Shown here: positions 1-54,095 of the stretch, one piece after another
Position numbering within the stretch: the stretch's first letter is position 1
How the letters are laid out: every line of letters starts with the position of its first letter
DNA from: Blasia pusilla
Lineage: Eukaryota
Length of the DNA stretch: 64,000 bases
Assembly (NCBI GenBank): GCA_050084515.1
Contig: CM114271.1
Location: forward strand, 16,368,001 to 16,432,000
Reading direction: 5' to 3'
Notes under the pieces: model-generated
The model's database searches: none
Told to the model about the DNA's origin: nothing
Seen by the model: the letters and a program-made list of their open reading frames with translations, nothing else
Translations under genes and position numbers: made by a program

Positions 1-905
1 CCCCAGCACGTGTCTTCGTGATGCCTCAGTCATCCCTGGCACCGCCGTAGTACCGGTAGTGAACCCCATGGCGCGCTCGCGCTCATCTGCTGTAGGCTCC
101 TCCAATACTCTGGTCACCTCATCCCAAATCATGCTTGGCCCTCCCTGACGAAAGGCATGGGATGATGGGAAGCTCACCAACGCAGGTAAGGCTGCCCTCA
201 ACTCCCCCACCCTATTGGCCGTGGCCAACGGTGGTCTATCATCCCGTGTCACCACGTGAGATCTAAGCCCTGAGCCCGAAAAAGCATACATTGTGAAATG
301 TGGTGCTCTCTGGACTCCACTGTATGCTCGACTCAGTACCTTTGGTTGTATCAGGCTCGTCCACCACAGTCGTGGACGATGGGCACGTGACCCAACTCTC
401 GCTGCATCTAACAACACAGAAGGTCCCAACCAGGACCTCACCTGATGTACACTCGTCATCACATGTGCACGAGTATCTCCCAACAATGGCACGTTCTCCA
501 AAATGTACGCTGGAGAACATATCTGACCCTCCTACAAGTGTCGTACTTCTCGCAGCATCTCCCAAAACATCCCTGACCTCGGATCCTGCAATCCAAATCC
601 TCGGCCAGCTCATGAATGACCCTGACATGGCCATCCAACAATCACCAAATGAATCGTGCCAACTCTATCCAGATCCTGCGCCCCCACCAAAGATATGTCG
701 GCGGGTAGCGTATGTTGGTATCCCCGTACTACAGATACCGACAACAACTCAGGATACCTCTGGACCAATCTCGCCACGTGACGTAATGATACTCGCCGCG
801 CGGTCTCATCTCTCTCCACATAAAGGTACTGATGCACCCGTATGCCCGCCTGCAATACTACAGCCAATCCGGTGCTAATCCCTCCGAAGAGATCTAACAC
901 CCTAA
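1..905 (-). pseudogene. C5 cytosine DNA methyltransferase domain of copy 1
   Basis: Motif I VLDLFGGIS, motif II YVERD, motif IV GWPCQGHS, motif VI YILENV, motif VIII RAHRPRLWW, motif IX-like EPTADERERAMGF. Interrupted by in-frame TGA/TAG codons. Confidence 0.9.
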
Positions 906-1272
906 CACCCTCCTCTCGGCACTGCCACACAACAGGTCTGGTATCTAGTGGGGTCATCGTCTCCACTCCAAGAGCCCGATCGCCATGTGACTCTCGCTGC
1001 TCTGGGATAAAAACATGACTCCACGCCTGCCTCACGAGGTCGTCGGCACTCCTCTGTAGCTCTCGAGTCGTACCCCATAATGGTGAAGAGGCATCGCTAA
1101 CATGGGAAGAGACACCCGCCATGGCCTGTCTCTCCGTGGGACTATCCGCTACTGGGACATCCTCCGCATGTGCGTTCCCCTCCAACAACTCTCCTGGCCA
1201 GCTAACACTACTTGTGAAAGCGGCCAACATGGTCACAGACTCGCCTCGTGATCGACCACCTCGTCCCGCAAA

Positions 1273-2037
1273 CTACACGGGTAACTCACTCATCCGACCG
1301 TCACCTGACCGCCATCCTGGCTGATAAGCAACGGTCTCCTCCCAGAAGTCAAGGATGAATCCAAGGGGATATAACACTATACTCCCCACCAACACATCAT
1401 ACGACTCAGCTGGTGTCGTAATCGCACGTGTGAGCACCATAGCACTATCCGTCGCATGCTCTGGCTGGACTCTGACAACAATCTCCTGTCGAGTCATATA
1501 CTGAGTGGGTGATACGCCCCCAATCGAGGTCTGTATCTCGAAGGGACAAGGCTCAATGTCGGCCTTCCGTAACCCCAACGCTAAACACGCCGCCTTCCCT
1601 AACATCAAGGGTTGCGCTCCCGAATCAAGTAGGACGCGCTGCGGGTGGTATACTGTCCCCGTCGGACTAACCAAGCAAAATACTCCATCCCGGTTATCTA
1701 GTAACACTACTCCATGTGTCACCACTGTTCGCTCTATGGCCGGTCGAGCTTGCATATCTACCAACTTTGCCGCCGCCGCATGCCATGACTCTGTGGGAAA
1801 CGTCCCAAGCACCGGCTCTGAGGGCAAGTCCACCACCTCCTCAACTACCTCTGAACAAGAAGCAGTCACCTCTCCACGCTCACACAACGTGGCGGCCAAC
1901 CGAAACACCTCAGCTGGTCCATCTCCCAACGTCGCCAACTCTATGGCGGAAAATAGTGGAGTCTGACTCACTCTGGTGGCCACCTCCAACACTATGGTCG
2001 ACGTTGACTCCACTCGAGCCGGCATAGGAGTTGTCAC
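1273..2037 (-). pseudogene. Retroviral-type aspartic protease region of copy 1
   Basis: VLLDSGAQPL active-site motif and downstream YDVLVGS. In frame with the MTase-containing ORF 610..1236 apart from one TAG, which is CAA (Gln) in copy 2. Confidence 0.85.
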
Positions 2038-3533
2038 TCCAACTCCTCGTGACGTCGACTACACATGAATCCCATACTAGAGAGATCCTCACCCGGGTCA
2101 GGGTAAGAGGTAGAGAGTGGAGTCACACTAGCTGCTCGCAGCTCCGTGCCTTCCCCAAGTTGCATCATTGTCATGGCAGCAATCCTCTGCTCCAACTGAT
2201 CGATGCGTGAGAGAAGCGCCGGCTCTGGTGCTCCTACTCCATCTCCTCTGGCTGGTGATGGTCCTCTACCACCTCGTCCAGGAAGAACTCCTCGACCTCC
2301 TCCAGGACGACCGCCCCCAGGCCCTCGGCCTACCTCTGGACGTGCCCCTCGTCGAAGGTCAAAACATCTATCCCTAGTGTGACCATATCTGTGGCAATGG
2401 TCACACTGGTGCTGTGGTGGGGCCATCCTTTGTGGCTCCTGAGCAATTGGAGGCGCTGGTGGTCCTCTCCCATGCTGTTGGCAGTCTCTTTGCCTATGGG
2501 CCCCTCCACACGTCCAACAAGACCACATCGGTCCCTGTTGGGCAACATATGTAGGTGCGGGTCGTTGCCTCATAGGCTCACGGTACCCGCCCTGCTCTCT
2601 AGGCACATTGGCCCGCTCCCGTGGTACTCGTGCTCGTTGTGGCACCTGTGGGGTCACCGCCGCTCGTGCACCCGTCGACTCTCGAGAAAATCCAGCGGTC
2701 ACTACCTGCTCCTCACTCATGTTGAGCTCAATACGCTCAGACAACTCAAAGACCACCTTCAATGTGGGCTTCGCTGTGTGAATCAGCACTGCATCTCGGA
2801 CTCTCCTCCGTAGTTCTCGGTCCAGAACCCTGTACCAATACTGGACTGACTGGGCCTCAGTCACTCCAAACAAAGCAATGATCAGCCTCCTCATGCGTGT
2901 GAATGCCTCTCTTAGACTCTCACCCGATCGTCGCTGAAAATCCTGTAGACTCTTCAGCTTGTCGGTGCGTACGCCCTGGTAGCTCTTCCCCAACTGTCGG
3001 AAGAACTCCATTTTGGGGTTGAAGCTGGGTGGCCCTCTACCACCAGAGGTCTTTGCCATATTGCCTCTCTCACTGCCCTCCTCTCCATATAGTCTCCGGG
3101 CTGATGGTGTGGGTCTCTCTCCTCTCACAATCCCATCATATGCCTCGCGACCACTAGTGGACACATACCCTGGAGCCCAATACATCCTCCAGGCATCGAT
3201 CTTTACTGAATATAGTGATCAAAAATTCATGTAGTCATCCATCGGGTGACCCTCTAAGTGCTGGAACAACCCCTTCCATGCCATGAAAGGGTTGAACCGT
3301 GTCGAGGTCCGTATCTCTTGGATGAAATCATCTAAGTCGATGGTGCCCACTGCACCCAAGAAACGATGCATGCCCCGATGGCCCATGTCGTTTGTCTCCT
3401 GCCAAGTACTACTGTCTCTATCGGTGATCTCGTCACCACACCCAGTGTCCAGTGATGACGATCCAGTCACAGATGGATGTCGAGGGAGCTCCTCACTAGT
3501 AACCCCTCGGTATCTCACTCCACTCCGTGTCAC
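2034..3533 (-). pseudogene. Gag of copy 1 with two zinc knuckles
   Basis: Retrotransposon-gag-like FQRRSGESLREAFTRM segment; knuckles CWTCGGAHRQRDC and CDHCHRYGHTRDRC; RGG-rich tail. Confidence 0.85.
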
Positions 3534-4279
3534 ACCACTACCACTGCTCGCACTACCCGGTTCTTCCGAACCCTGGAAGAACGCCGTGATGACAAACCCT
3601 GTCTCACCCGCTCAAGCACTCAGACTCACCAAGAGTCTCCCACACGCCTCACTAGCTCACCTATGCTAACGTCAATCCCGTGATGACATACCCGGCCTCA
3701 CGCACGCTCCACACTCGGGCTCACGATGAGCCTCCCAACTGACTCACCTAACCTAGCGACACTATCTCGGGTCATGCACGCGACCCCTACTCGGAAACCG
3801 CCATATATCCACCAACATGCTACACATGAAAAGAATCTACACTCGTCACCATCACTACACCCATCTAGCACCAGCTACTACCCGATACCCAGCACTCTCA
3901 ATCACACACGACAAGTGCGGGAAAAGGGACTCGAATGGGTAACCTGATCACGCCCTCCAACCTGGTGCATCGTTAATATGCACTCCTCCTCATGAGATGA
4001 CAATCTCCACAACATAACACTCCCCTCGACCAACATGTTGATCCTCCCGTCAACAGATGCGGACAACCCGTCAGCATCATGCACACTGCCCGTTCGGCCC
4101 GTGGCCTCCCTACGGGAGGAGAGGGGAGAAAGGGGGTTGCGTCCGCCCATGGCCTTCCGAACAGAAAAATGACACAAAAAACGTCACACACACGTCTCCA
4201 GGGGCTCCTGACCAAGGCAACTCGCTTGCCTACCTGCAAACAACAAATTCCCACCAGCCCCCTGACATCTTTCTCATGT

Positions 4280-4870
4280 AAAAATAAAGAGTAGTAAAAA
4301 TGGCACACCCGGCCTTAAACTCCACTCCTCAATCTACATCGGCATATCGAGCCTCGTCCACCCTGTGCTATCAAGGAATCCGGACGCTAGCACCCTAGTC
4401 CTAGCTCACACACATACAAGGGAGGTGCTCCAACGGCCCAACATGAGAAAGATGGCTTAGGAAAGCCATCTTCCTCTCTTATATAGCCCTTCCCTTGGTA
4501 ACCTGCGCGCACAAGTTACCAGGGGCAGGTGACCTGGTCAACAAGTCACCCGGCTGTAAAAGACCTCAACATGAAAGTTGTCAGAAACAACGTTCCTGAC
4601 ACAATGGACCTATCCTCAACCTCATCCGACACTATGGGACAAAGTTACACTCGAGATAGTCCATTGGCTCCTACGCCCTATCCACGATAGATCTCGGCCT
4701 ATCGGCTACTCAGATGTGACAGTTGTCATGTGCATACATATCGCTACACAACATACATCGCTTGTCACATTTACACCACACAACACCGATCTTCCCCACA
4801 CACGGGTCAATCCACACATGTACAAAAATCAACTCATAGATCTCGGCCTATCGGCTACTCAGATGTGAGA
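4280..4870 (-). repeat. Terminal repeat block of copy 1: A fragment (4836-4870), B fragment (4724-4838), 2-bp spacer, full A (4280-4721)
   Basis: Direct match to the A and B segments of copy 2. Junction TGACA-GT-TGTCA at 4717-4728. Confidence 0.88.
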
Positions 4871-6275
4871 GAGAAGAAGATTCGCCCCTCACCACTTTCA
4901 CCACGGACTGGGGAACTTTCGCATATCGCGTGATGCCCTTTGGGTTGTGCAATGCCCCAGCTACCTTCCAACGAATGATGATCTCCATCTTCCAAGAGTA
5001 TCTGCGGAAGTTTGTTGAAATTTTCTTGGATGATTTTTGTATCTTTAGTACAGAGGCCGAACACCTGGAAAAATTAGAATTAACCCTCGCTCGTTGTCGA
5101 GAAGTGCACTTGTCCCTCCATCCAGAAAAATCGTATATTGCTATGAAACAAGGGATCTTGTTGGGACACAGAGTGTCGGCTCAAGGAATTGAAGTCGACA
5201 GGGCTAAGGTGGATATTATCGTCGCATTGGAACCACCCACCAATCTCCGAGAATTGAGAGGATTCTTGGGACACGTCGGATACTATCGAAGGTTTATTTA
5301 AGATTATGCGGTAAAAGCAAGAGCTCTTACTGCATTACTTAAAAAATCTACAGAATGGGAGTGGACTCCACCTTGCCAAGCGGCATTTGACACTTTAAAA
5401 AGGGCATTGCAAACAGCTCTTGTACTCCGGTCCCCTGATTGGACCAAACCCCTCCACGTATATGTGGACACATCCTCGTTTGCCATTGGAGTGGTGCTCA
5501 GCCAACTAGATGACAACAAACATGACTTTCCGGTTTACTACGCCTGACGGCAACTCTCTTCGGCGGAACAGAAATATACAACCACTGAACGAGAGGCACG
5601 AGGCATGGTCTTCTCGTGTAAAAAGTTTCGACACTATTTATTAGGTTACGAATTTTTCTTCCACGTCGACCATTTCGCGCTCAGACCATTAATGGTGAAG
5701 GCAGACTTGTCCGGTCGCATTGCGCGATGGATCCTTCTGCTCCAAGAATTCACATTCGATGTGGTTACCCGTGCCGGCAAGGTGCATACCAATGCGGATT
5801 TTCTTTCCAGGTTGAGGATGACGAACGCGGACCTCACCCAATCCGTCGATGATACCTTTCCCGACGAAGACCTGTTCCAGATTACGGAGGACCGGTTGTG
5901 CCAATCCTTTTATTAGGATATTTTGCGTTTTTAAATTACTCTGCCACTTCCTGGCCCTATGACAGCGGACGAACGTGTTGTTTTCTTACATAAGATAGGA
6001 CCATATGAGATATGTCAAGGGATCCTATTCAAATTAGGTGTGGATGAAGAGTATCGACGACGCTTGGAAGCATAAGAAATCCCCCAAGTCATCAGAGCCA
6101 TGCATACGGCTGATTCTGGTGGACATTATGCGATAAAAAACACCGTCAAGAAAATCTTGGCCGCACGTTATTGGTGGCCAACTATGTACAAAGATGTAGG
6201 TCACTCTATCCAGAGTTGTGATGCCTGTCAAAGAGCAGGTCGACCCACGGCAACCTCGCGATGACCTTTGGTACC
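4871..6275 (+). pseudogene. Decayed Ty3/Gypsy pol fragment of a different, non-MTase family (RT C-half, RNase H, integrase zinc-binding domain)
   Basis: FAYRVMPFGLCNAPATFQRMM, FLDDF, FLGHVGYYRRFI, VDTSSFAIG, NADFLSR, H..GGHY...CDACQR. Several stop codons. Confidence 0.9.
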
Positions 6276-21800: not shown

Positions 21801-22588
21801 TTTTATAATTTTCTCAATTATAAGATGTGAGAAAATTATAAGATCTAAGAAATTTTAGAAAAATTAGTAAAACCTTTTTCCCCATGGAATTCTTAGTTTA
21901 GCATAGAATAAAATTAAAACCAAAATTCAAGAGTCTTCAAGGGCTTCATAGAAGATGCTTATTTAAGGCCTTTCAATGTGAGCTAATGCAAATAAGGGTA
22001 TGAGTATGGATAAATAAGCATGAAACACAACTTGTAAAAATTTCATTTTTCATAAGGATATAAAAGTTATGTTTTATTTAAAAATCATGATAAATAGCAA
22101 CAAGCTTTATCTTGCACAAGGCAAGAGTGTGCTTTTTTACATATTCCATTCCTTGTATAAATATTTTTTTCGTCATCATGCATATCGCTTTCAATCACAA
22201 TACACATAAACTCTTAGGGACCATCTTAAATAAAGTCACATTTCATGATTCTTGAGAAAATATTGATGTCGACGAGTTTATATAAATCTTTTTTTAAGGT
22301 TTAACTTTGAGAAATTGAGATGTATTGATAGTCATAGAAAAAACAAGTCGTGTATGGAACTAATATATCCACAAAAGAACAGATAAGTCTGAGTTGAATC
22401 CAATCAATGAAATAAATGGAATAAAAATATTGATATTTCTCTATGTAATGATTTCCACATCGAAGATATGTTATTTAAACCCATGAACTACATGTCATGT
22501 CTTATTCACTTGTTGTATTGATCTATTCATATTTCTTAGAATTATGATTGATGCACCAATCTTGAGAGAAAATTTATGTAGAGATAAT

Positions 22589-23068
22589 TGTCACATCTGA
22601 GTCGCCGATAGGCCGAGATCTATCGTGGATAGGGCGTAGGAGCCAACAGACTATCTTGAGTGTAACTTTGTCCCACGGTGTCGGTTGAGGTTGAGGATAG
22701 GTCCATTATATCAAGAACGTCGTTCTTGACAACTTTCATGTTGAGGTCTTTTACAGCCGGGTGACTTGTTGACCAGGTCATCCGCCCCTGGTAACATGTG
22801 CGCGCAGGTTACCAAGGGAAGGGCTATTTTTAGGGGAAGAGCCTTTTGGCTCTTCCCAACCCTATATAAGAGAGGAAGATGGCTTTCCTAAGCCATCTTT
22901 CTCATATTGGGCCGTTGGAGCACCTCCCTTGTATGTGTGTGAGCTAGGACTAGGGTGCTAGCGTCCGGATTCCTTGATAGCACAGGGTGGACGAGACTTG
23001 ATATGCCGATGTAGATTGAGGAGTGGAATTTTAGGCTGGGTGTGCCGTTTTTACTACTCTTTATTTTT
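22589..23068 (+). repeat. Repeat A1 (contains TATA box and predicted R-U5)
   Basis: Direct repeat of 32011-32489. Confidence 0.92.
22863..22907 (+). promoter_or_regulatory. TATA box and predicted transcription start (~22894) of the retrotransposon
   Basis: TATATAA at 22863, 31 nt upstream of CATCTTTCTCAT. The arrangement is conserved in all A copies. Confidence 0.6.
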
Positions 23069-23082
23069 ACATGAGAAAGATG
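23069..23082 (+). promoter_or_regulatory. Putative self-priming primer-binding site ACATGAGAAAGATG
   Basis: Immediately follows A1. Reverse complement of CATCTTTCTCATGT inside A. Lacks the TGG start of a tRNA PBS. Confidence 0.7.
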
Positions 23083-24733
23083 TCGGGGGGATGGTGGGAA
23101 GTCGTTGTGAGCAGGTAGGCAAGCGAGTTACCTCGGTTGGGGAGCCCATGGAGACGTGTGTGACATTTTGTGTCATTTTTCTGTTCGGAAGGCCGTGGGC
23201 GGAAGCGCTGTCCATTTTTCTCAGATTTTGCTGCTGTGGGTCATGGAGGACATCAGCGGAGTGTCTCACAACGGGTGTTCATGGGCGAGTGTGTCAAGAG
23301 AGAGAGAAGAGTAGCTTTGAGAGCTACAACCGCCAAGAGGATCGTAGATCATAGCCGCCTAGGTCAGAGTTAGGTCACGGTTTTTGTGGCGGCAGTCGTT
23401 TAGGTCTAAACGGACACGAGGGGCGGGCGGAAGCGAAACGGGGAGAGAGACTCGCCCACGTCCGAGGCAGGGAGTCAAAATTGGGTGTGGGGGTGTGAAG
23501 GCTCCTGGGGGATCGGGTGGGGCTGCATAGGGCCGCGGGCCCGTGGAGAGTACTTGTAGAGGCCGGAAGGGTCCAAGATAATTGGAGGAACCCGAAACTC
23601 CAGGAACCCGGAAGGTGCATAAGGCACCGTGCCGTACACAGAGGGTTGGAGGAAGAAGGAGGTAAGTTCGCAGGACTGGGTCAAGGCCGCAGCTAGGAAA
23701 GGGAGCAAGGGCTGACCACATAGGGCGGCGTGCCCGGAGCTCTAAGGACACAAGAAGCTCCATAGGGAGCCGCACAGGTGTAGTTAAGAGGTAGAAGGGC
23801 CGTAAGGAGGCTCAGGGCATGGGCGGGCTCAAGTGTAGGGAGCCACGCATTGGATTGGGCACTTTGCACCGCGCATGGCCCAAGGAGCCATGCGCGGTGC
23901 ATAGGGACTGCGTCGGCAGGAGTGGCCACATAAGCCCACGTGCCTTACGCGGTTTAGAGTTGAACGCAACGTCGGGTTAGGGATACGGGGTTGGGGGCTT
24001 TTGAGGAATGTGGGAAAATAGATGTTGTGGTAAGCTGGAGTAGACATGGTTGGACGGACGTGGTAGGCATGCTACCTAGTTGAGCGTCCGTTCTGGGCTA
24101 AGTTTGACTACGAGTGAGATGAGGTATTCGCACCGACCATTCTCGATGGAGAGTTGACGATGGAGTGTCAATGCGCTGATGTCGATGTATGGGTTGTCTG
24201 CATCTGTTGACGCGAGGATCGACGTGTTGGTCGAGGGGAGTGTTGTGTTGCGGAGATTGTCATCTCATGTGGAGGAGTGCATGTTGACGGTGCAGCAGGT
24301 TGGAGGGCGTGATCAGGTTACCCATTCGAGTCCCTTTTCCCGCACTTGTCGTGTGTGATTGAGAGTGTTGGATATCGGGTAGTAGCTGGTGCTAGATGGG
24401 TGTAGTGATGGTGATGAGTGTAGATTCTTTCATGTGTAGCATGTTGGTGGATATACGGCGGTTGCCGAGTAGGGGTCGCGTGTATGACCCGAGAGAGTGT
24501 CGCTAGGTTAGGTGAGTCAGTAGGGAGGCTCATGGTGAGCCCGAGTGTTGAGCGTGCGTGAGGCCGGGTATGTCATCACGGGATTGATGTTAGCATAGGT
24601 GAGCTAGTGAGGCGTGTGGGAGACTCTCGGTGAGTCTGAGTGCTTGAGCGGGTGAGACAGGTTTTGTCATCACGGCAAAACCTCGTTCTTCCAGGGTTCG
24701 GAAGAACGAGGTAGTGCGAGCAGTGGTAGTGGT

Positions 24734-27230
24734 GTGACACAGAGTGGAGTGAGATACCGAGGGGTTACCGGTGAGGAGCTCCCGACATCTATCCGTGGAT
24801 CGGATCATCATCGACCGGGCGAGCGTGAGCGAGATCGCGAAGAGAGTAGTACTTGGCAGGAGATGGACGACATGGGCCATCGGGGCATGCGTTGTTTCTC
24901 GAGTGCAGTGGGCACCATCGACTTAGATGATTTTATCCAGGAGTTCAACACATGGTGCGACATCCAGGAGATACGGACGCCGACACGGTTCAACCCTTTC
25001 ATGGCATGGAAGGGGTTGTTCTAGCACTTAGAGGGTCCCCCGATGGATGACTACATGGAGTTTCGATCACTATATTCAGTAGAGATCGATGCCTGGAGGA
25101 TGTATTGGGCTCCAGGGTATGTGCCCACTAGTGGTCGTGAGGCATATGATGGGATTGTGAGAGGAGAGAGACCCACACCATCAGCCCGGAGACTAGATGG
25201 AGAGGAGGGCAGTGAGACAGGCGATATGGCAGAGACCTCTGGTGGTAGAGGGCCACCTAGCTCCAGCCCCACGGTGGAGTTCTTCCGGCAGTTGGGGAAG
25301 AGCTACGGGCGTCGCCGACAAGTGAAGAGTCTACATGATTTTCAGCGGCGATCGGGTGAGAGTTTGAGAGATGCATTCACACGCATGAGGAGGCTGATCA
25401 TTGCTACGTTTGGAGTGATTGAGGCGCGATCAGTCCGATTGAGTGCGGGGTTTTGGACCGAGAACTACGGAGGAGAGTCCGAGATGCGGTCTTGATTCAC
25501 AGCCAAGCCCACATTGAAGGTGGTCTTTGAGTTGTCCGAGCGTTGAGCTCAACATGAGTGAGGAGCGGTAGTGACGCTGGATTTTCTCGAGAGTCGCGGG
25601 TCCCCGGCGGTGACCCCACGGTGCCCAATCTGCGGGAGTGGGCGGTGTGCCTAGAGAGGCGGGTACCGTGAGCCTATGAGGCAACGACCCGCACCTACAT
25701 ATGTTGCTCAGCAGGGATCAATGTGGTCTTGTTGGACGTGTGGAGGGGCCCATAGGCAGAGAGACTACCCACACCATGGGAGAGGACCACCAACGCCTCC
25801 GATTGCTCAGGAGCCACAGAGGATGGACCCACCATAGCACTAGTGTGACCATTGCCACGGATATGATCACACTAGGGATAGATGTTTTGACCTTCGTCGA
25901 GGGGCACGTCCTGAGGTAGGCCGAGGGCCTGGGGGCGGTCTTCCTAGAGGAGGTCGGGAGTTCTTCCTGGACGTGGTGGTAGAGGACCACCACTAGCCAG
26001 AGGAGATGGAGCAGGAGCACCAGAGCGAGAACTTCTCTCACGCATCGATCAGTTGGAGTAGAGGATTGCTGCCATAACGATGATGCAGCTTAGGGAAGGC
26101 ACGGAGCTGCGAGCAACTAGTGTGACTCCAGCTTCTACCTCTTACCTTGACCCGGGTGAAGATCTCGCGAGTATGGGATTTATGTGTAGTGCAGCCCAGG
26201 TTGAGGGAGTTGCAATGGTGACTCGGTGTGCTGCGAGAGGCACCGAGCCATCGAGAGGTGGAGTTGAGATTGACCCACAGAGGGAACCGATGGGCGGCAG
26301 GCCAGGGTTCCATAGTCGTTCACATTGTCGGAGGCACTACACACACCATCGATGGTGCCTCGACAACCAGGGGTGCCTACAGTTCAGGCACCTACGTCGA
26401 TGTCACGAGGAGTTGGAGTGACAACTCCTATGCCGGCTCGAGTGGAGTCAATGTCGACCATAGTGTTGGAGGTGGCCACCAGAGTGAGTCAGACTCCGCT
26501 ATTTTTCGGCTATAGAGTTGGCGACGTTGGGAGTTGGACCAGCTGAGGTGTTCCGGTTGGCCGCCACGTTGTGTGAGCGTGGAGAGATGACTGCTTCTTG
26601 TTCAGAGGTAGTTGAGGAGGTGGTGGACTTGCCCTAAGAGCGGTCCTTGGGACATTCCCAAAGAGTCGTGGCATTGGCGGCGGTTGGTAGATATGCGGCT
26701 CGACCGCCATAGAGCGGTGTGGTGACACTGGAGTAGTGTTCTTTGGATATGCGAGCTGGAGTATTTCGCTTGGTTAGTCCGGCGGGGCGGTATGGCGCGT
26801 CCTACTTGATTTGGGGCGCAACCCTTGATGTTAGGGAAGGCGGCGTGTTTAGCGTTGGGGTTCGGAAGGCCGACATTGAGCCTTGTCCCTTCAGATCTGA
26901 GACCTCGATTAAGGCGTATCACCCCTCGATATATGACTCGACAGAGATTGTTGTCGAGTCGGCGAGCATCGGACGGATAGTGCTATGGTGCGCACAAGTG
27001 CGATTACGACACCAGCTAAGTCGTACGATGTGTTGGTGGGGAGTACAGTGGTATATCCCCTAGGATTCATCCTTGACTTCTGGGAGGAGACCGTTGCTTA
27101 TCGGCCAGGATGGCGGTCAGGTGACGGCCGCATGAGTCAGTTACCCGTGCAATTTGCCGGACGAGGTGGTCGATCACGAGGTGAGTCTGTGACCATGTTG
27201 GCAGCTTTCACAGGTAGTGTTAGCTAGCAG
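24734..27230 (+). pseudogene. gag and protease of copy 2 (frameshifted)
   Basis: Collinear with copy 1 gag/PR (FNPFMAWKGLF, FQRRSGESLR, YDVLVGS, WRSGDGRMSQLPVQ). Confidence 0.85.
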
Positions 27231-27504
27231 GAGAGTTGTTGGAGGGGAACACACATGCGGAGGATGTCCCAGTAGCGGATAGTCCAACGGAGAGACAGGC
27301 CATGGCGGGTGTCTCTTCCCATGTTGGCGAGGCCTCTTCACCATTGTGGGGTACAACTTGGGAGCTACAGAGGAGTGTCGAAGACCTCGTGAGGCACGCG
27401 TGGAGTCATGTTTTATTGCCCGCGAGAGTCACGTGGCGTCGGGCTCTTGGAGTGATACGATGACCCCACTAGATACCACACTGTTGTGTGGCGGTGCCGA
27501 AGGA

Positions 27505-28475
27505 GGGTGTTAGGGTGTTAGATCTCTTCGGAGGGATTAGCACCGGATTGGCTGCACTATTGCAGGCGGGCATACGGGTGCATCAGTACCTTTATGTGGA
27601 GAGAGATGAGACGGCGCTGCGAGTATCATTACGTCACGTGGCGAGATTGGTCCAGAGGTATCCTGAGTTGTTGTCAGACTGTCATACGGGGATACCGGAT
27701 ACGCTACCCGCCGACATCTCTTTGGTGGGGGCATAGGATCTTGATAGAGTTGGCACCATTCATTTGGTGATTGCTGGATGGCCATGTCAGGGTCATTCAT
27801 CAGCTGGCCAAGGATTTGGATTGCATATCCGAGGTCAGGGATGTTTTGGGAGATGCTGCGAGTAGTACGACACTTGCAGGAGAGTCAGATATGTTCTCCA
27901 GCGTACATTTTGGAGAACGTGCCGTTGTTGGGAGACACTCGTGCACGTGTGATGACGAGTGTACATCAGGTGAGGTCCTGGTTGGGACCTTCTGTGTTGT
28001 TAGATGCAACAAGAGTTGGGTCACGTGCCCATCGTCCACTACTGTGGTGGACGAACCTGATACCATCAGAGGTACTGAGTCGAGCATACAGTGGAGTCCA
28101 GAGAGCACCACATCTCACAATGGATGCTATTTTGGGCTCAGGGCGTCGATCTCAGGTGGTGACATGAGATGATAGACCACCGTTGGCCATGGCCAATAGG
28201 GTGGGGGAGTTGAGGGCAGCCTTACCTATGTTGGTGAGCTTCCCAGCATCCCATGCCTTTCGTCAAGGAGGGCCAGGCATGATTTGGGATGAGGTGACCG
28301 GAGCATTGGAGGAACCTATAGTAGATGAGCGCAAGCGCGCCATGGGGTTCACTACCGGTACAACGGCGGTGCCAGGGATGATTGAGGCTTCCTGGAGACA
28401 GGTGTTGGGGCAGGCGATGGACCTCAACTGTCTCACATGGATAGTCAGCCTAGGTATGGCTGAGCAGAGACGAAT
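27505..28475 (+). pseudogene. C5 cytosine DNA methyltransferase domain of copy 2
   Basis: VLDLFGGIS, IAGWPCQGHS, YILENV, RAHRP, ERKRAMGF, RQVLGQAM. The C-terminal part is in frame with the RT N-terminal ORF at 28741. Confidence 0.9.
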
Positions 28476-28740
28476 GTGAGTGTCATCCATGCCGTCACGT
28501 CCACGAGTTGGACCATTTCCTACAAGGTCTGTACAGGCATTGGCTGGGGGCGAGACGAGGAGAGATAGGCACCCATGGACTTCCTGGGATGTTGTTTGAG
28601 CAGAGAGTGCGAAGGCGGCTAGAGTAGCACATGTTCATTTTTCGGATGTGGAGCATGGTGTAGGAGGTCAGAGTGGAGTGGTTGTTGCGGAGGTGGCTAG
28701 GGTTGCTACATAGCAACCAAAGCCAGAGGTTGGGTCCTCT

Positions 28741-30135
28741 TTGAGTGAGGTCACGATGGAGACTTCGGAGCTTGTGATAGGTCTCAAGTTGATAGGAGGA
28801 GAGCGACGGCGAGTTCATAGGTTTCTGAGAGGGCATGTCAATTGTTTTGCCTTCAGTATGAGAGACTTGGGTACGCTGAAGGGTCTCGGGATGCGGATTG
28901 AGTTGGCTAGTGATACGCCGATCTTTCGTCGACCCTACAAGTATTATGATATGGAGCGAGCCTTTATTCAGAGCAGGAGTCAGGACTTGTGGAGTTATGA
29001 CATGGGGAGTATGCATCTGCCACAGTCATGCCGGCGAAGAAGGATATGTATGGCAATTGGACGGATAGGCGGATGTGTGGAGATTACCATCCTATCAACC
29101 GAGGCAGTGGATCGACACGCCATGCCTACTCTGAGGAGATCTTTGATGCGATAGGGCATGCAAAGATCTTGACTTTAGATCTCCATCTTTGGCTATCATC
29201 GACTTCCTATCACGTTGGAGGAGAGGAGAAGACGACGATGCAGGGGATAGATTGGTTCGGGAGAGATTTCTTGTATCGTGGCGGTTCTTACCATTTGGAT
29301 TGAAGAATGCGCTCATGAGTTTCAGAGAGAGTGATGGATAGGATTCAGGCTGGCTTGGATTTTGTACGATGTTACATAGATGATATTCTTATCTTCAGTT
29401 CCACGGTTGAGGAGCATGAGCGACACTTGGAGGAGGTGTTTTGGCGATTGTAGTTACATGGACTGAAGTTACATCCACGCAAGTGCAGATTCTTTCAGGA
29501 GCAAATTGAGTACTTGGGACACACCATATATCCGAGTGGGTTAGGCGTTCAGCAGACAAAGGTAGAGGCTATTGCGCAGATTCCACGCCCTACAGATGTG
29601 AGTCAAGTCCGAGCATTTCTTAGACTGGCGAACTTCTATCGACGGTATGTCAAGGGTTTTAGTGCGATCGCAAAGTCTTTGACCTTGTTGACGAGACTTG
29701 ATCAGGTGTGGTTGTGCAACCTGTCCTCACCCATTTTACAGAGACCGGTTAGGGGTGGCCCATTCCAGTTACATACGGATTGGAGCATGTTGGGTCTAGG
29801 AGCAGTGCTTACTTAGAGGGATGACGAGGAGAGGGAGTTCGTTGTGGCTTACGCGAGCCGATCGAACAACATTGCAGAGGCAAAATCTGACGGCTCCTAC
29901 GAGGGAGAGTGTTTGGCTGCAGTGTGGGCCGTGGCACATTTTAGGTGCTATTTATTCGACAACCCTTTCACACTTATCACTGATCATCAGCCGTTGAGGT
30001 GGTTGATGGAGTCCGACAAGCTTACGGGCAAGCTTGCCAGGTGGGATCTATTACTACAGGAGTATGAGTTTGAGGTGGTTCATAGGCCAGGTCGGCTGAA
30101 CCAGGATGCGGATGGGTTGAGTCGTAACCCATGTC
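28741..30135 (+). pseudogene. Reverse transcriptase and RNase H of copy 2
   Basis: RMCGDY, YIDD (29373), FLRLANFYRRYV, LHTDWSMLGLGAVL, YEGECLA, TDHQPL, DADGLSR. Confidence 0.92.
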
Positions 30136-30359
30136 CGAGTCAGAGAGACGACACAGGAGCTCGATGGCACAGAGAGAGTGATGAGGAGATGGTGCCCGGT
30201 TGGCATGCATCTGCCTATCTTTGTTGGTTGACTATGGCAGGTCAGCCACAGGTGATGACTCCAGAGGTTAGTGAGAAGTCCAGTGGTGGACTTCTCACTA
30301 ACCTCCGGATCCAAAGACTCCAGTGAGTCTTTGGATCCGGAGGTTAGTGAGAAGGCGAC

Positions 30360-31811
30360 AGGTGGTCGTGATATCCATGACGACGTGGAGGTTGTGGAGT
30401 TCTTGCGCACTGGCGTCATTGGGAGTACAGTGAGTGCTAGGGAGCGGGATCGGATCCTACAGAGAGCCAAGAGGTTCAGGTGGGAGGGGACTCACATTTT
30501 TCGGGTATGGGGAGATGGTAGGATACGAGTGGTACCTCATCCTTCCCAGCGAGCACGTGTAGTGCGACATGCCCATGAGGAGTTGGGACATTTCAGAATA
30601 AAGCGTACTCACAGCTTACTCCATGTTCAGTATTGGTGGCGCGGCATGCATGTTGGGGTACAGTAGTTTGTGGCCAGATGTATGGTATGTGACAGAGTGC
30701 GAGCATCCTTCAATGCTCCCACTCCGCAGTTACATCCTTTGCCGATTATGGGTTTAGGTTATCGGTGGAGTTTAGACTTTGCAGGACCTTTGCCATTGAC
30801 AGGGCGTCATCATAGGTACGTGTTGGTCATGGTGGAGCATTTCTCCAAGTGGATAGAGTTGGTGGCACTACCAAACAAGGCGAGCGAGGGAACAGCTTAT
30901 GCGTTTCTAGATCTTGTGCTTAGTCACTTTGGTGCACCGGCGGAGGTGTTGACGGACCAGGGTACCGAGTTCAGGGGAGAGTTTCAGGCCTTGTGTGATC
31001 AGGCGCTGATAGATCACCGCACCACGTCGAAGATCATCGAGGCGGATGGGTTGGCGGAGAGAGTTGTGCAGAGCGGTGAAGAGAGGATTGCGCAAGTATG
31101 GCTTGCAGCGGGGGCTTTGAGATTGAGTGGGACCTACAGTTGCCATGGTTGGCTATGGGTTATCGCTTTAGTCGGCAGGCATCCTTGGCGTCATTTTCAC
31201 CGTACTTTTTTCTCTTTGGGAGAGAGCCAGATTTACCTGCAGCGATTCAACGAGACATGGCGGAGGTGTTAGATCTTGATGATCCAGATGTGTGGGTACA
31301 AGCATGTTCTCAGAGGGCAGAATTTTTTCGTAGAGTTATGCCTATGGCCTTTGAGAACTTAGCTATTGCCCAGCATAGAGATACATTGAGGTACGCGACC
31401 ATTCGTGGAGTAGGTTATCATCCAGGGATTATGAGGTTTCATCCTGGAGATTACGTGTATTTACAGCAGGCGGCACCCACGACGCTAGATGTCACTGCAG
31501 GGCGCACGATCCTACGTGTGCGTGAGGTATTACCGACCGGAGTTCTCATGTTGGAGGGACGGGATGGTATGGTTTGGAAGGATCATGTGCGCAATTGTGT
31601 GCCATGTCATCTTCCGAACGTAGATGGGACGGTGGATCCGAGCTTGGCAGTGGTACCTGCAGGCTTGAGGTGTATGTTGTGCGGATCTGCGAGGGGTGCA
31701 GCCACCATGTTGGTATGTGATGGTTGTTCTCGAGGGTGGCATATGTCATGTCTGACCCCCCCTCTTGATGTGGTTTCCACGGGACAATGGATGTGTCTGA
31801 GATGTGTATAG
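30360..31811 (+). pseudogene. DDE integrase with C-terminal PHD finger, copy 2
   Basis: HEELGH...CMVC zinc-binding domain, WSLDFAGP, LTDQGTEF, GLAER; C4HC3 PHD at 31671-31808. Confidence 0.92.
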
Positions 31812-31878
31812 GGTAGTAGGTCATGTCAGATAGATGTGATATTTTCTATCTGGAGTTGGGGGGATCCATTTGTCAGCT

Positions 31879-31887
31879 AGGGGGGCA
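31879..31887 (+). promoter_or_regulatory. Polypurine tract
   Basis: AGGGGGGCA immediately before repeat B1. Confidence 0.7.
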
Positions 31888-32627
31888 GTTGTGTGATCTC
31901 CATGTATATGTATGATTTGATTTTTGTACATGTGTGGGGAAGATCGGTTTTGTGTGTGTAGATGTGACGAGCGATGTATGTTGTGTAGCGATATGTATGC
32001 GCACGACAGCTATCACATCTGAGTCGCCGATAGGCCGAGATCTATCGTGGATAGGGCATAGGAGCCAGCGGACTATCTTGAGTGTAACTTTGTCCCACGG
32101 TGTCAGATGAGGTTGAGGATAGGTCCATTGTGTCAGGAACGTCGTTCCTGACAACTTTCATGTTGAGGTCTTTTACAACCGGGTGACTTGTTGACTAGGT
32201 CACCCGCCCCTGGTAACTGTGTGCGCAGCAGTTACCAAGGAAGGGCTATTTTAGGGAAGAGCCTTTTGGCTCTTTCCCAACCCTATATAAGAGAGGAAGA
32301 TGGCTTTCCTAAGCCATCTTTCTCATGTTGGGCCGTTGGAGCACCTCCCTTGTATGTGTGTGAGCTAGGACTAGGGTGCTAGCGTCCGGATTCCTTGATA
32401 GCACAGGGTGGACGAGGCTCGATATGCCGATGTAGATTGAGGAATGGAGTTTTAGGCCGGGTGTGCCGTTTTTACTACTCTTTATTTTTGTTGCGTGATC
32501 TCCATGTATATGTATGAGTTGATTTTTGTACATGTGTGGATCGACCCGTGTGTGGGAAAGATCGGTATTGTGTGGTGTAGATATGACGAGCGATGTATGT
32601 TGTGTAGCGATATGCATGCTTACGACA
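31888..32627 (+). repeat. 3' repeat block B1 (31888-32008), GC spacer, A2 (32011-32489), B2 (32490-32627)
   Basis: B1 and B2 are direct repeats (B1 has a ~17-bp deletion). A2 matches A1. Confidence 0.92.
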
Positions 32628-34098
32628 TAATTCTAAAGGTAAATAGGTACTCAAGAACTTTATTAGATACATATGATTCATCCCCTCATCCAAAATAGAA
32701 TTAACACTTAAGTATATACTCTCCTACAAACATCTCATAGAAAAATGTTTTTTTAGGAAAAATTCTTTTGATGTTATCTTTTATTCTAGATGAATAAAAA
32801 ATAAAAAATAAATCACATTCTTATTGAATCTTAATATAACTTCTAAACTTATATCATCAATGTTCTTAAATTATGTCATGTCGAAATAGCAATATCCCGA
32901 AGATTTTGAATTTTAGAGAACTTTTAAGGATCTTCCCCATGGATAATAGTAATGATATCATTTTGTGATCATTTTAGTGAGGAGCTTAGATGGTAACTTA
33001 GGAAGATCGTCGTCTAACTCCAAGACGACGATACAAAAAATACAAAAAATATTCTTGTTGAAGATATGCATGTTGACTTTCCAAATTTTAGAATCTCATA
33101 TGGATTACAATCTCCACGAAGAGCAAGACAAAGGACTTCATGAAAATCTCCACCAAAAATGAGAAGCTTTACCCCAAATGGCAAGTCTCTCAAATTTTTG
33201 GAGACCGTCCTCAATGAGACTTTCTAGGGTATGATCAATGACCTCAAAGGACAATATTGATAAATTATAGGAGACTCATCCCATGTAATGAGCAAGGGAT
33301 TTCTAAGTATATATGTCGAATCACGATCACCTTATGGCTTACATGAGGAACTCTCATCAAGATTTATAAAAATCTTGAATGAGCTATAAGTCCTCCATCC
33401 AATAAAAATGTAATTATCTTAATGACGTAACACCTAAAATTATACAGTGCGCACTATTGTCTAACTTTGTCTTTCTAGTTCCAATTGGACCATTAACAAC
33501 AAAGGATTTTGGTGAAAGCATCATAACCTGTACAATCCTTTCTAATTAATTATGTACATGATTCCAAAAATCATTTTTTTATCACTCAAATATTTGTTAT
33601 CTTCAACTACTCAACTGACTCCTATGATATATATATATATATTCATAATTTTCTTGGACATAAATATGTATGTCTTCTCATTATGCTTTACTTTACCTTA
33701 CTATGGCCTCCTTATTTAACTCATGTAACATATTTTTTAACTCCATCTATACACAATACACTTCTTGTCAATAATCCCTTCACTGTGGGATCCAAAAATC
33801 TCTTGATAGGTAGTCCAGGATGCTATCCTTCTTTTGCGTAAGGAGATAATAAAAAATACGTAATGTAGTTTTCTCCTCATTTAGATTTTACATGCGATTT
33901 TAAGTCATGTTCTCCCCCTCAACACACACATCAATAGGTGGGATATGTTCAAATGGTGAATACCATGACTTTAATCAAAGGACCTTTAGTACCCCAATGC
34001 CCCAATATTTTATTCAGATGCAAAGCAAACCAAGTGCAAAAGCGAAAGAAGAAAACCAAGTTTCTTCTCAGCCCGATGAAGTGCTGACAGCACAGAGG

Positions 34099-50300: not shown

Positions 50301-51599
50301 GATGCTCAGAACATGCTTAACCTATTTTTGTTAAAAAGTATGAGCCTTCTCGTAGATTTTTTCTTGGAGATATTATGTAGACTTGATTGGTTTTTGCGCC
50401 CCATCTCACTAGTTCTATGATTGTAAAATCACGATGTATTGTATTGGCAGCGGTTTGGAGCACTTGCAAGAGTTTCTTTAACTTAGCTAAGTAATTATAT
50501 AAGTAGAGGTCATATGGAGCAAATTTTTTGATGATTATGAAATCAACATGCACCGTAATAGTGGTTATGAGTAGCACTATAATTATTCTTATGGTCTGGT
50601 ATGGGTTCGAGATATATTCAGATCTGGATGTAGAATTGCAATTATGAACCTTAGCAAGGTACACCCGAGCACTAGTGGAGTTGCTCCATTGGAGAAACAA
50701 CACTTGTTTGTTAAAAGTACATTACCACAGGCCGAGCACATAACAAGGTTCAAAGCTAAGTTCTTTGAACTAATACATGGCACAAAATACTCACAAAGCA
50801 CAAATTGCATTGCTCATAGCATCTAATGATGGTTTGAGTCTCTCCCAGGCAATTGCTAATCTTGATGAATGGTTTAGAGGTATTGATCTAACAAATGGCA
50901 GCTGATATTGATTTTGTACTATGGATGGATCAAGGAAATATTGGAGAATATGCTATGTTGTGCATTTTTGCACAAGAAAGTTCATGAACGACATGGAGTC
51001 ATGCTGACTTAAGCATTAAGTGCAAGTTTTGGGAATCTCCTGAAGTAGATGGTGTGCTTAGCTTTAATATGGCAATTGGACTTAACAATTCATATAGGTA
51101 AAAATAACAATTAGCTTAAAGTTCGTTGTACTTTGCAAAGATGCAGGCAGATGGAATGACTCAACATCTCAATAAAATCATAGAGCAGCCCTTGATGCAG
51201 CGCATTGCCATGAGCCTAAGCATGAGAGGCATTGGTTTTATTTTGGCCTAAAGGGATCATCTACTGGAAAAACAAGCTTCTCCTCAACTAGGTGGAAGTG
51301 TGGTGCAACCAAAAATTAATCAAACCACAAAACTGAAGAGTTGCACTTATTGTGGTAAATTAACATAAGTTCTGTGTATGCCAAGGGTTGGTTTATCTTT
51401 GTTTAAGGAAAGTATCTGCTTGAAATAGATTTTCCTTTCAAGTATGGTGGTACTGTTGTAGAGTCAGTGATGAAGCTAATATTGAAGTAGGTAAGTAAGA
51501 AAATAATGAAGGAATGGGATGTTTATTATAGGATTAGAGAAAGATTTTTCCAGAAAAAGTGAAGCCCAAAAATACCATGCGTGAAACTAGAATAAGTTA

Positions 51600-51982
51600 T
51601 ATTGTGTGTATACATATTGCTACACAAACCACATCGCTGGTCACATCTACACACCACACAACACCGATCTTTCCCAACATACAGGTAGACCGACACATAA
51701 ATGAAACATACTCATGCATATACACTGGGACCCCACAACAAAATCAAGAGTATTGAAAACGACTCACCCAGCCTGAAACTCCACTCATGAATCTACATCG
51801 ACATATCAAACAAAATCCACCCTCTGCTATGAGGAAATCCGGACGCTAGCACCCTAACTCCTACACAACCACACACGTCCATGCAAGAGAGGCGCTCCTA
51901 AGGCTCAACATGAGAAAGATGGCTTGAGAAAGCCATCTCTCTCACTCTTATATCCTTGGAAAGAGCCAAAAAGCTCTTCCCA
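51600..51982 (-). repeat. 3' end (partial A, then B) of a diverged third copy of the MTase retrotransposon
   Basis: Homologous to A2-B2 of copy 2, with the same A|B junction at 51739/51740. Homology stops at the B terminus. Confidence 0.8.
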
Positions 51983-52065: not shown

Positions 52066-53653
52066 TCTGGCTCTCCATAGCCAACAAGCCCAAATAGGCT
52101 GACGTATGCCATCCTGGCACCAACTCCTCATCACTCTCACCATGCCAACGAGCTCCAGTCACATCTCGCTAACTTGGGCATGGGTTAACGCTCAAACCAT
52201 CTGCATCTTGGTTGAGCTTCCCAGGTCTATGAAACACTTGGAAGTCATACTCTTGCAACAAAAGAGCCCACCTCGCAAGCTTTCGTATAAGCTTGTCGGA
52301 CTCCATCGAACACTTAAGTGGCTGATGATCACTAATGATGGTAAAGGGATTTCCGAATAGATAACATCTAAAATGTGCAACAACCCACACTGCAGCCAAG
52401 CACTCACTCTCATACGAGCTATACTTCACCTCTGCACCTTTGTTCGAGCAACTAGCGTAAGCCACCACGAACTCTCTACCATCATAGTCATGTTGGGTGA
52501 GCACGGCTCCAAGCCCCAACATGCTCCAATCGGTATGAAACTAGAAAGAACGCCCCCTGATCGGTCTCCTCAATATGGGCGCGGACGTCAATCTTTCCTT
52601 GAGCATCTGAAATGCTCTCTCTTGCTCATCCCCCCAATGCCACTCCTGATCCACCTTGGTCATCAAGGTTAGTGGCTTTGCAATTGAATTGAAAGTAACA
52701 TTGATAGAAGTTCGCCAATCTTATGAATGCATGAACTCAACTCATATTTGTAGGGCGTGGAATGCGTGAAATAGCCTCTACCTTTGTCTGTTGCATACCA
52801 AGGCCCCCTGGGTATATCGTATGACCCAAGTACTAAATTTGGCCATAGAAGAACTTCCACTTGCCTGGATGTAGCTTTAGCCCATGTAACTGCAATTGTC
52901 GAAACACCTCCTCTAGTTGTTGCTCATGCTTCTCAACCGTGGTGGTCGATCAATGCTTGATCACACAAGATCTGAAACTCCCTACGGAACTCTGTACCCT
53001 GGTTTTTCAACACCTCAGTCGGTGCGCCGTAATGACTCAACACTCGATCTAGGAAGGCATACGCTACTCCCTCACTTGTTTTTTCAGGCAATGCAACCAA
53101 CTCTATCCACTTTGAGAAGTGCTTGACCATCACCAATACATAACGACTATGGCGCTCTGTCAAAGGCAAAGGTCATGCAAAATCCAAACTCCATCTATAA
53201 CCTAAACCCATGATTGGAAGCGGATGCAACTGTGGAGTTGGAGCATTGAACGATGCTCGAACTCAATCACACACCATGCATTTGGCAACAAACTGCTGAA
53301 CGTCAGTCTGCATGCCTCGCCACCAATACTGAATCTGGAGCAAGCTATATGTCCGCTTCACTCCAAAATGACCCAACTCCTCATGGGCATGACGCACCAA
53401 ACGTGCTCTCTGCAAAGGATGAGGCACTACACGCACTCTGCCATCCTCCCACACTCGCAACACATGTGTGCCCTCCCATCAGAACACTCTAGCTCATTGT
53501 AGGATCAGATCCCACTCTCTAGCACCCACTGTACTCGCGACGCTGCTAGTACGCAAGTACTCCAAGACCACTCCATCGTCGTGAATGTCTCGGCCACCTG
53601 TCCTCTCCTCACCGACCTCTGGATCTAACGACTCTCCATCAGACCTCGCCATC
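52066..53653 (-). pseudogene. Rearranged RT/RNase H/integrase fragment of the same family
   Basis: HAHEELGHFG, CMVCD, LGLGAVLT, DADGLS and GWHTSAYL all match copy 2, but the integrase part lies upstream of the RT/RH part. Confidence 0.85.
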
Positions 53654-53654
53654 G

Positions 53655-54095
53655 AAGTAAGGGAGGAGTCTCTCCAAGATGTCTTGGAACACGAATCCCC
53701 ACTTTGAGCACCAAACGGCATCTTAGAGGCAAGGGATGGAATGGGAGTTTGGCGTTGGAACTCGAAACCCAAACTTGATCCAAGGGAGTGGACTTTGTAT
53801 GCCACACTTGGATTCCAACCTGAGATTCACTTTGTATGAGTCTCGGTTAGGGACTCAGTGGATGTCCATCGAACAGTTGGAACTGCCAGGCGTGAAACGC
53901 GGTTTGAGGTTCCTGAACCGACCAAAAAGTATGTCCCAAGTCTTGTGAGATTTGCCTGTGTTGTAAACCGTGAAACCAGGAAGGTTGAGCTTGATGAGAG
54001 ACCGAGATGAGAACTCGGAAAGTTAGCCCGCTGATTGATCCAAGACCCGACTAACCTAAGCGTGTGTTCAGATACAGATCAGCATTGTTAGTGTA
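53655..54095 (+). repeat. 3' part of an LTR of the solo-LTR family (its preceding part is at 51989-52065)
   Basis: Collinear with 58620-59060. Confidence 0.85.

Follow-up and report, generated by a model that had tools for sequence, protein, structure and literature searches.

A Ty3/gypsy-type provirus with permuted repeats and internal integrase attachment sites in Blasia pusilla

Introduction

The stretch of Blasia pusilla DNA analysed here (64,000 nucleotides; assembly GCA_050084515.1, contig CM114271.1, positions 16,368,001 to 16,432,000 of the forward strand; referred to below as the window) contains a decayed retrotransposon at 22589-32627 in which two repeats, A and B, are arranged around an internal region (int) in the order A-int-B-A-B. 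In textbook retrotransposons with long terminal repeats (LTRs), as in retroviruses, the linear complementary DNA (cDNA) integrates by its ends, circles being by-products. The locus raises the question of how an element with a DDE integrase can insert and replicate when the ends expected from reverse transcription and the ends of the inserted element do not coincide. A sequence-only reading of the window had suggested that the cDNA forms a circle with two LTRs, which the integrase opens at a site inside the LTR. The observation extends from a single copy to a lineage, for which a permuted provirus with internal attachment sites is solid, and the best reading of these sequences is that the substrate of integration probably carries joined cDNA ends and is cut by the integrase at an internal CA-NN-TG site.

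Structure of the Element

The element was mapped by repeat finding, by BLAST of the element against the window and by direct reading of the letters; it is named copy 2, and a second member of the family, at 1-4870, is named copy 1. Copy 2 has the order A1-int-B1-GC-A2-B2, with 8.8 kb of internal region between A1 and B1, TG...CA at its ends and TAAT on either flank, and both repeat finding and reading thus confirmed the split repeats, termini and flanks that had been claimed. A 4-bp match between flanks has a chance expectation of about 0.0055 at the flank composition of the window. B1 and B2 are 82% identical with one indel (gapless blocks 92-96%), B1 meets A2 in the junction CGACA-GC-TATCA (32004-32015), and the joint between A2 and B2 reads TTTATTTTT|GTTGCG. 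The sequence details listed in the sequence-only reading were all present with one exception, A2 starting with TA and not TG (one transition). Copy 1 comprises, from 5' to 3', A(1-33), a deletion, B(27-end), AC, a full A (4721-4280), the primer binding site (PBS) and the internal region, and its junction reads TGACA-AC-TGTCA on its own (minus) strand. Judging by TG...CA, the short terminal inverted repeat and the 4-bp duplication, the ends of the provirus appear to be real integrase ends. The features are as follows.

22585-22588, no strand: left target-site duplication TAAT, equal to 32628-32631
22589-23068, plus strand: A1, 480 bp, starting with TGTCAC (left attachment end) and holding the promoter, R and U5; 94% identical to A2
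22863-22869, plus strand: TATATAA box within A1, 31 nt upstream of the self-primer
22894-22905, plus strand: predicted 5' end of the transcript, which is the self-primer CATCTTTCTCAT (CATCTTTCTCATGT in A2 and copy 1), the reverse complement of 12-14 nt after A1
23069-23082, plus strand: PBS ACATGAGAAAGATG of the self-priming type, abutting A1
23207-24190, plus strand: leader segment peculiar to copy 2, with about 70 bp in its place in copy 1
24656-26020, plus strand: Gag-like region with two CCHC-like knuckles, interrupted by stops (motifs by eye in the translation)
27473-28476, plus strand: DNMT3-like cytosine-5 methyltransferase domain with one frameshift and stops
29328-30065, plus strand: reverse transcriptase (C-terminal part) and Ty3-type RNase H (RVT_1, E 2e-14; RT_RNaseH, E 3e-28)
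30541-31029, plus strand: integrase, H2C2 zinc domain and DDE core (Integrase_H2C2, E 3e-13; rve, E 8e-14)
31671-31805, plus strand: C-terminal PHD finger (PF00628, E 4e-10)
31877-31887, plus strand: polypurine tract (PPT) ctaggggggca, abutting B1 and kept as (a)gctaggggggcga ahead of B1 in most related loci
31888-32008, plus strand: B1, the start of U3, ending in ACGACA (repeat finding and reading)
32009-32010, plus strand: 2-base spacer GC between CA and T(G/A), the internal attachment junction; GC, AC, AT or GT in relatives
32011-32489, plus strand: A2, starting with TATCAC (repeat finding and reading)
32490-32627, plus strand: B2, fused to the end of A2 without extra bases and ending in ACGACA (right attachment end)
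32628-32631, no strand: right target-site duplication TAAT
1-4870, minus strand: copy 1, truncated by the start of the window (BLAST within the window)
51597-51981, minus strand: relic of a related family (about 78% identical) in which B follows the 3' half of A and the self-primer word is retained

Priming Site and Predicted Ends of the cDNA

The sequence that follows A, ACATGAGAAAGATG, is the exact reverse complement of CATCTTTCTCATGT inside A, over 14 nt in copy 1 and over 12 nt in copy 2, where one change in A1 shortens the pairing. The complement begins at base 1 or base 3 after A in the two window copies, and the primer word begins 31 nt past TATATAA in A1, a position at which the transcript would be expected to start. 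By sequence prediction, the PBS thus pairs with the bases at the start of the element's own transcript, as in Tf1/Sushi elements. A PBS of the tRNA type was rejected, as the boundary between A and int has no TGG and TGGTGGGAAG, 27 nt downstream, varies between families.

Regarding the polypurine tract, both the window element and most related loci have ctagggggg immediately before B. The positions of both sites had been claimed from the letters, a PBS abutting A1 and a PPT abutting B1 with an LTR consisting of B+A, and the claim stands, the PBS having now been identified as a self-primer site. Because this site lies directly after A, the end of U5 is fixed at the last base of A, and with the PPT directly before B the LTR made by reverse transcription would be B-NN-A, with predicted cDNA ends GTTGTG... 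and ...TTATTTTT. The A2|B2 joint equals the join of these two predicted ends, in agreement with the sequence-only reading. Thus the integrase ends lie inside the B-NN-A LTR, where they face each other across two bases, and the ends of the cDNA are found fused as A|B.

Relatives were collected by searching metagenome contigs with the open reading frame of the integrase and PHD finger, which gave 80 loci (L numbers) with 40-78% amino-acid identity; these were analysed by self-comparison and by mapping of the A and B of locus L028, and loci with identical flanks were merged. BLAST of the window A and B against the 80 loci gave no nucleotide match, and the loci belong to other families. In the L028-type family the two paired words, CTCAAAGAACT and AGTTCTTTGAG, are unlike those of the window family, and their pairing is retained: an exact complement of 9-11 nt was found at offset 0-1 in seven of 12 5' ends, while the other five, all decayed, had no complement of 8 nt or more. 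By an arithmetic estimate, about 0.03 matches of 9 nt would be expected per element by chance. As in the window family, the primer is located downstream of a TATA box, at a distance of 31 nt in L006, the sole L028-type copy measured.

A near copy of the PBS precedes the self-primer word within A in both families (window 22863-22910; L006, approximately 2377-2420), and a DNA hairpin is possible at the primer word, for example CTCAAAGAAC-AT-AGTTCTTTGAG. Such a hairpin may be relevant to primer choice or to strand transfer.

Layout and Ends of Related Loci

The same design was found in three further families beyond that of the window. The arrangement A-int-B-NN-A|B, with A1 and the 3' block both within the locus, is present in L028, L029, L049 and L058 (A1 of L029 being without its first 9 bases), and two remoter families have a block PPT|B...CA-NN-TG...A|B...CA, namely L030, L044, L045 and L047 (60-66% identity) and L067 and L069 (about 40%). 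The window and L028-type families have in common the PPT ctagggggg, the start of B (GTTGTG), its last bases (...GCACGACA) and the start of A (TGTCA), and their B repeats are alike in just 83 of 138 aligned columns over the full length.

All 12 unique 5' ends of the L028-type family read flank|TGTCATGACC...A-PBS, and B was not found upstream of the 5' A in any of them. Among its 30 unique 3' ends, nine have B-NN-A|B, 17 have bare B after the PPT, as in an A-int-B arrangement, two have B-NN-A followed by an inverted A(1-178), and two are unclassified; bare B is therefore the commonest form (17 of the 28 classifiable ends), which the sequence-only reading had not foreseen. The A|B joint shows neither gained nor lost bases in all nine L028-type A-int-B-A-B copies, in copy 2 and in the relic at 51597-51981. 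For L028-type elements with both ends visible, the left and right flanks are as follows.

L028, A-int-B-A-B: CATA/CATA
L049, A-int-B-A-B: AATC/AATC
L058, A-int-B-A-B: AACA/AATA
L006, A-int-B: TGTT/TGTT
L007, A-int-B: ACTA/ACTA
L033, A-int-B: GGTA/AGTA
L042, A-int-B: ATCA/AACC (no duplication)

Perfect 4-bp duplications are present in four of these seven elements, or five of eight when the window TAAT is counted, and the flanks of L058 and L033 match in three of four bases. Ends at the internal CA-NN-TG site with 4-bp duplications, as had been claimed for the window element, are thus found in several independent insertions.

The two loci with an inverted A at the end, L001 (1283-1798) and L013 (3361-3878; the same as L015), have unlike flanks. 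In both, A is followed by an inverted A(1-178) whose start falls precisely on the self-primer word and whose last bases, ...GTCATGACA, are the left end in complement. These ends have the look of a by-product that recurs when a longer RNA acts as the primer: such an RNA would prime at the PBS and be copied by the plus strand, whereupon the integrase would cut at an attachment sequence that is not terminal. They support the ability of the integrase to cut at an attachment sequence away from the end of the DNA.

Verification of the Assembly

Logan contigs of three DNA runs (X1, X2 and X3) and raw reads of one RNA run (X20) were mapped on window positions 22000-32010, within which A, int and B each occur once. 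Depths sum many copies, and no ratios of forms were drawn from the counts. The mapping showed the family to be highly repeated in the organism. The joint from the end of A to the start of B (23068 to 31888) was found in at least 12 contigs of X1, at least three of X2, at least one of X3 and at least five RNA reads, and also in variants a few bases off. The joint from the end of B to the start of A (32010 to 22589 and 32009 to 22588) was found in at least one contig of X1, at least four of X2, at least two of X3 and at least five RNA reads. Since both joints occur in three DNA runs and in RNA reads, and the layout recurs at independent loci, the layout is not an assembly artefact, a possibility that the sequence-only reading had put forward for checking. 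The RNA run had a shallow depth, with reads mostly less than 95% alike and no pile-ups at starts or ends.

When copy 2 was compared with the reads of other copies, C>T and G>A were the commonest differences in all four runs, a pattern that deamination of methylated cytosine in silenced repeats would be expected to leave. Read depth was approximately 0-5 in all runs across 23336-24003, within the G-rich leader of about 1 kb (23207-24190), and because of this near-zero depth the leader is confined to copy 2 or a small subfamily.

Coding Content and Classification

The internal region in the window is riddled with stops and frameshifts, and its domains were searched in a translation read through with X at stops. 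The order RVT_1, RT_RNaseH, Integrase_H2C2 and rve, ahead of the C-terminal PHD finger, is the pol order of Ty3/gypsy elements, which the short target-site duplication also matches. Where a Ty3/gypsy element has two identical LTRs with TG...CA ends, bounded by PBS and PPT, the unit that these bound here is B+A, but the provirus itself runs from the start of A to the end of B and carries A alone at its 5' end.

The methyltransferase domain sits between the protease region and the reverse transcriptase. In the window copy the motifs LDLFGG, GWPCQG and ENVP were seen by eye and PF00145 gave E 0.005, under the cut-off; the better kept homologue of L028 (6302-7321) matched the catalytic domains of DNMT3A/DNMT3B (solved-structure chains) at E 7e-9. 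The DNMT3-type domain within a Gypsy polyprotein that defines Gypsy-DNMT3 elements was thus recognised via the L028 homologue, the window copy itself being weak. For Gag, no Pfam match was obtained in the window copy, and zf-CCHC gave E 0.28 in L028. No tyrosine recombinase was detected in six frames of the window element, and Phage_integrase had no match there or in the read-throughs of L028 and L027, which together with the Ty3/gypsy domains upholds the earlier assignment to a DDE-integrase element without a tyrosine recombinase gene.

The named proteins nearest to the element are from Marchantia polymorpha and Sphagnum fallax. Annotated relatives in Marchantia and Sphagnum have PF00145 together with reverse transcriptase and integrase domains, and Gypsy-DNMT3 elements are thus, by domain content, apparently present in bryophyte-type genomes. 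The element itself is best classified with the Gypsy-DNMT3 lineage of Ty3/gypsy, as a decayed copy with a predicted gag, protease, DNMT3-like domain, reverse transcriptase, RNase H, DDE integrase and PHD finger; the placement in the lineage of KnitGypsy-Dnmt3 is made because the DNMT3 domain is common to both.

In every family examined (window 23069-31887 and the internal regions of L006, L027, L028, L049 and L058) the coding strand is strongly enriched in G and poor in C (GC skew +0.20 to +0.26) and has a slight excess of T, which could reflect strand-specific mutational bias or constraints on coding.

Proposed Integration Pathway and Its Alternatives

Reverse-transcription ends and integrase ends differ in at least four families, and target duplications flank independent insertions; a replicating provirus would therefore be explicable only via an intermediate with joined cDNA ends. 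In the pathway that we infer, reverse transcription would be primed by the 5' end of the element's own RNA in the fashion of Tf1, and the integrase would pass over the ends of the resulting LTR, its attachment sites being the TGTCA... with which A starts and the ...GACA with which B ends. A provirus able to make RNA with R at both ends would have to run A-PBS-int-PPT-B-NN-A and then B, where the A|B joint would be the end of U5 fused to the start of U3; A-int-B-NN-A|B would be the shortest provirus that has both attachment-site ends and such an RNA. B2 and the promoter half of A1 would lie beyond the reach of the standard strand transfers from RNA and would have to be regenerated in every cycle. 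Since both must be regenerated and this is the shortest workable provirus, the productive substrate would consist of joined cDNA ends cut at the internal CA-NN-TG, with a 4-bp target duplication as the result.

There are two or three ways in which the ends could be joined. Ligation into a 2-LTR circle is plausible and, at odds somewhat below even, a tentative choice; a plus-strand jump from end to end during reverse transcription is rather unlikely, and head-to-tail concatemers are less likely still. Extending the pathway to a streptophyte-wide lineage of DDE-integrase elements with an obligatory joined-end intermediate (2-LTR circle or equivalent), an integrase that is a site-specific cutter of the internal palindromic CA-NN-TG, a 'dead-end' circle turned productive and a DIRS-like layout reached by convergence without a tyrosine recombinase is a little more doubtful than not.

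Several observations weigh against joined ends cut internally. A 2-LTR circle holds two identical internal sites, and if opened freely it would give A-B-A-int-B as often as A-int-B-A-B; both forms had been expected by the sequence-only reading, an expectation poorly borne out, with A-B-A at none of the 12 L028-type 5' ends, where about three would be expected at equal frequency and the probability of zero is about 0.03 (arithmetic estimate). The sole fit, copy 1, is most simply read as an A-B-A-int-B form that has lost about 470 bp, a single ambiguous case. The commonest 3' ends, those with bare B, belong to A-int-B copies that need no joined ends: they could result when linear cDNA or a 1-LTR circle is cut, or when B1 x B2 or A x A recombination follows at a later time, and by the requirement for R at both ends they should be incapable of replication. 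The perfectly clean A|B joint is unlike the product of error-prone end joining alone, and every copy examined is decayed. The scarcity of A-B-A-int-B may be due to quick collapse by recombination between its two long A repeats, feeding the A-int-B class, to a joint made directionally, by a plus-strand end-to-end jump instead of ligation, or to an accident of sampling.

In that jump no circle would be needed: on reaching the end of A, where the minus strand has its 5' end, the plus strand would move to the start of B at the minus strand's 3' end and copy B again, giving a linear ...B-NN-A|B that the integrase would trim on both sides at internal sites. This route predicts A-int-B-A-B solely, which matches the 5' ends without A-B-A and the nine B-NN-A|B 3' ends, and it predicts the clean joint of all nine copies; the inverted-A ends of L001 and L013/L015 further suggest that the plus strand can copy beyond the end of U5 into attached sequence. 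However, jumps of reverse transcriptase from end to end often add untemplated bases, which are absent at the joint, and copy 1 resembles the A-B-A-int-B form.

A replication of the DIRS/PAT/Ngaro kind, with the internal B-A junction as the bridging template from which the ends are rebuilt and a DDE integrase replacing the tyrosine recombinase at the last step only, is improbable. The layout is typical of DIRS elements, and KnitGypsy-Dnmt3 has been called DIRS-like (PMC5890265, Fig. 4c legend), but the PPT exactly before B1 and the self-primer and PBS exactly after A1, the latter two co-varying between families, count against it as features characteristic of LTR-type strand transfer, a process in which B2 is never copied; moreover, the reverse transcriptase and RNase H are of the Ty3 type and target duplications are present. 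It is more improbable by far that A-int-B-A-B is secondary, with ordinary LTRs or A-B-A-int-B-A-B altered by recombination, nesting of solo LTRs or misassembly. Recombination of A with A or B with B would remove parts and yet keep the ends and the duplication, and A-int-B copies are many. This explanation is largely refuted by the 12 unique 5' ends, none of which has B upstream of A, by A-to-int and PPT-to-B junctions that are identical across copies and families, by the A|B joint in three DNA runs and by the perfect 4-bp duplications that flank A...B ends. An LTR of A+B with B lost from the 5' LTR was rejected as well, the A-to-int junction being identical in both window copies and across families.

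Comparison With Known Systems

The sequence-only reading had held the arrangement to be undescribed for a DDE element; this proved incorrect, since the legend of Fig. 4c in PMC5890265 gives the layout for KnitGypsy-Dnmt3 of Klebsormidium nitens, with repeats 'the same as that of a DIRS retrotransposon' and Gypsy domains (de Mendoza et al., 2018). As far as that account goes, KnitGypsy-Dnmt3 resembles the window element in having a DNMT3-type methyltransferase inside pol and DIRS-like A-int-B-A-B repeats. The host lineages differ, Klebsormidium on the one hand and, by the nearest named proteins, Marchantia and Sphagnum on the other, and the PHD finger of the window element has no mention in the main text of that paper. 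Supplements aside, a PBS, a PPT, the ends, a target duplication and a mechanism are all absent from the account (PMC5890265). The wording 'streptophytes (Gypsy-DNMT3)' occurs in a 2026 preprint, and the literature searched, again excluding supplements, held no account for Gypsy-DNMT3 elements of a self-primer, a mismatch between reverse-transcription and integrase ends, target duplications, a spectrum of forms or a mechanism. What is new here is therefore the identification of the self-primer site and not the layout, which is already in print for a DDE element; the pathway would account for a layout that was noted once in print without comment.

The A-coding-B-A-B arrangement is shared with the DIRS-like elements PAT, Ngaro, TOC1 (a non-autonomous DIRS element according to PMC9940879) and SymbioDIRS. 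Those elements encode a tyrosine recombinase, whereas the window element, which has the split direct repeats A1...B1-A2-B2 without a tyrosine recombinase gene, has a DDE integrase and 4-bp target duplications. 'DIRS-like' repeats by themselves are thus insufficient to classify an element, and LTR finders that expect two identical LTRs will mis-annotate elements of this design.

Regarding priming, self-priming is known in Tf1/Sushi and predicted for the plant element Tcn1 (PMC6317226), and the likeness lies in a PBS whose predicted pairing partner is the start of the element's own transcript and not a tRNA. It is confined to the priming arrangement, as Tf1/Sushi and Tcn1 have ordinary LTRs and a chromodomain, whereas the window element has permuted repeats and a PHD finger in place of a C-terminal chromodomain on its integrase.

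In retroviruses, integration through the circle junction is a minor or debated route. The integrases of foamy virus and HIV-1 cleave the palindromic junction of 2-LTR circles (PMC1180852; PMC1905944), which as described there resembles the present case in that a CA...TG junction away from a DNA end is cut by integrase and a circle is a possible substrate. The retroviral junction is a join of LTR ends and the provirus is unpermuted, whereas the junction of the window element lies inside the LTR and the permuted provirus would be the replicating form. Whether a DDE integrase can take a junction as its substrate is thus a question for which the family provides a natural system.

Ty3/gypsy polyproteins with a PHD finger have also been described in Chlamydomonas, in REM1 and Gypsy-7a_cRei (PMC9940879). 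Gypsy-7a_cRei is drawn there with LTR 'subparts', its left LTR being without the right LTR's last 8 bp; the same source reports no DNMT for these elements and does not describe an A-int-B-A-B layout.

Neighbouring Sequences in the Window

The window is a nest of transposons within AT-rich unique DNA. Copy 1 adjoins or sits inside another decayed retroelement on the opposite strand (4880-5600). A pair of direct repeats of about 440 bp, 53656-54098 and 58620-59061, which are 4.96 kb apart and 84-88% identical, resembles the LTRs of another, smaller element. Next to it are rearranged remnants of reverse transcriptase and integrase (52075-53634, minus strand) that belong to a relative of the permuted element.

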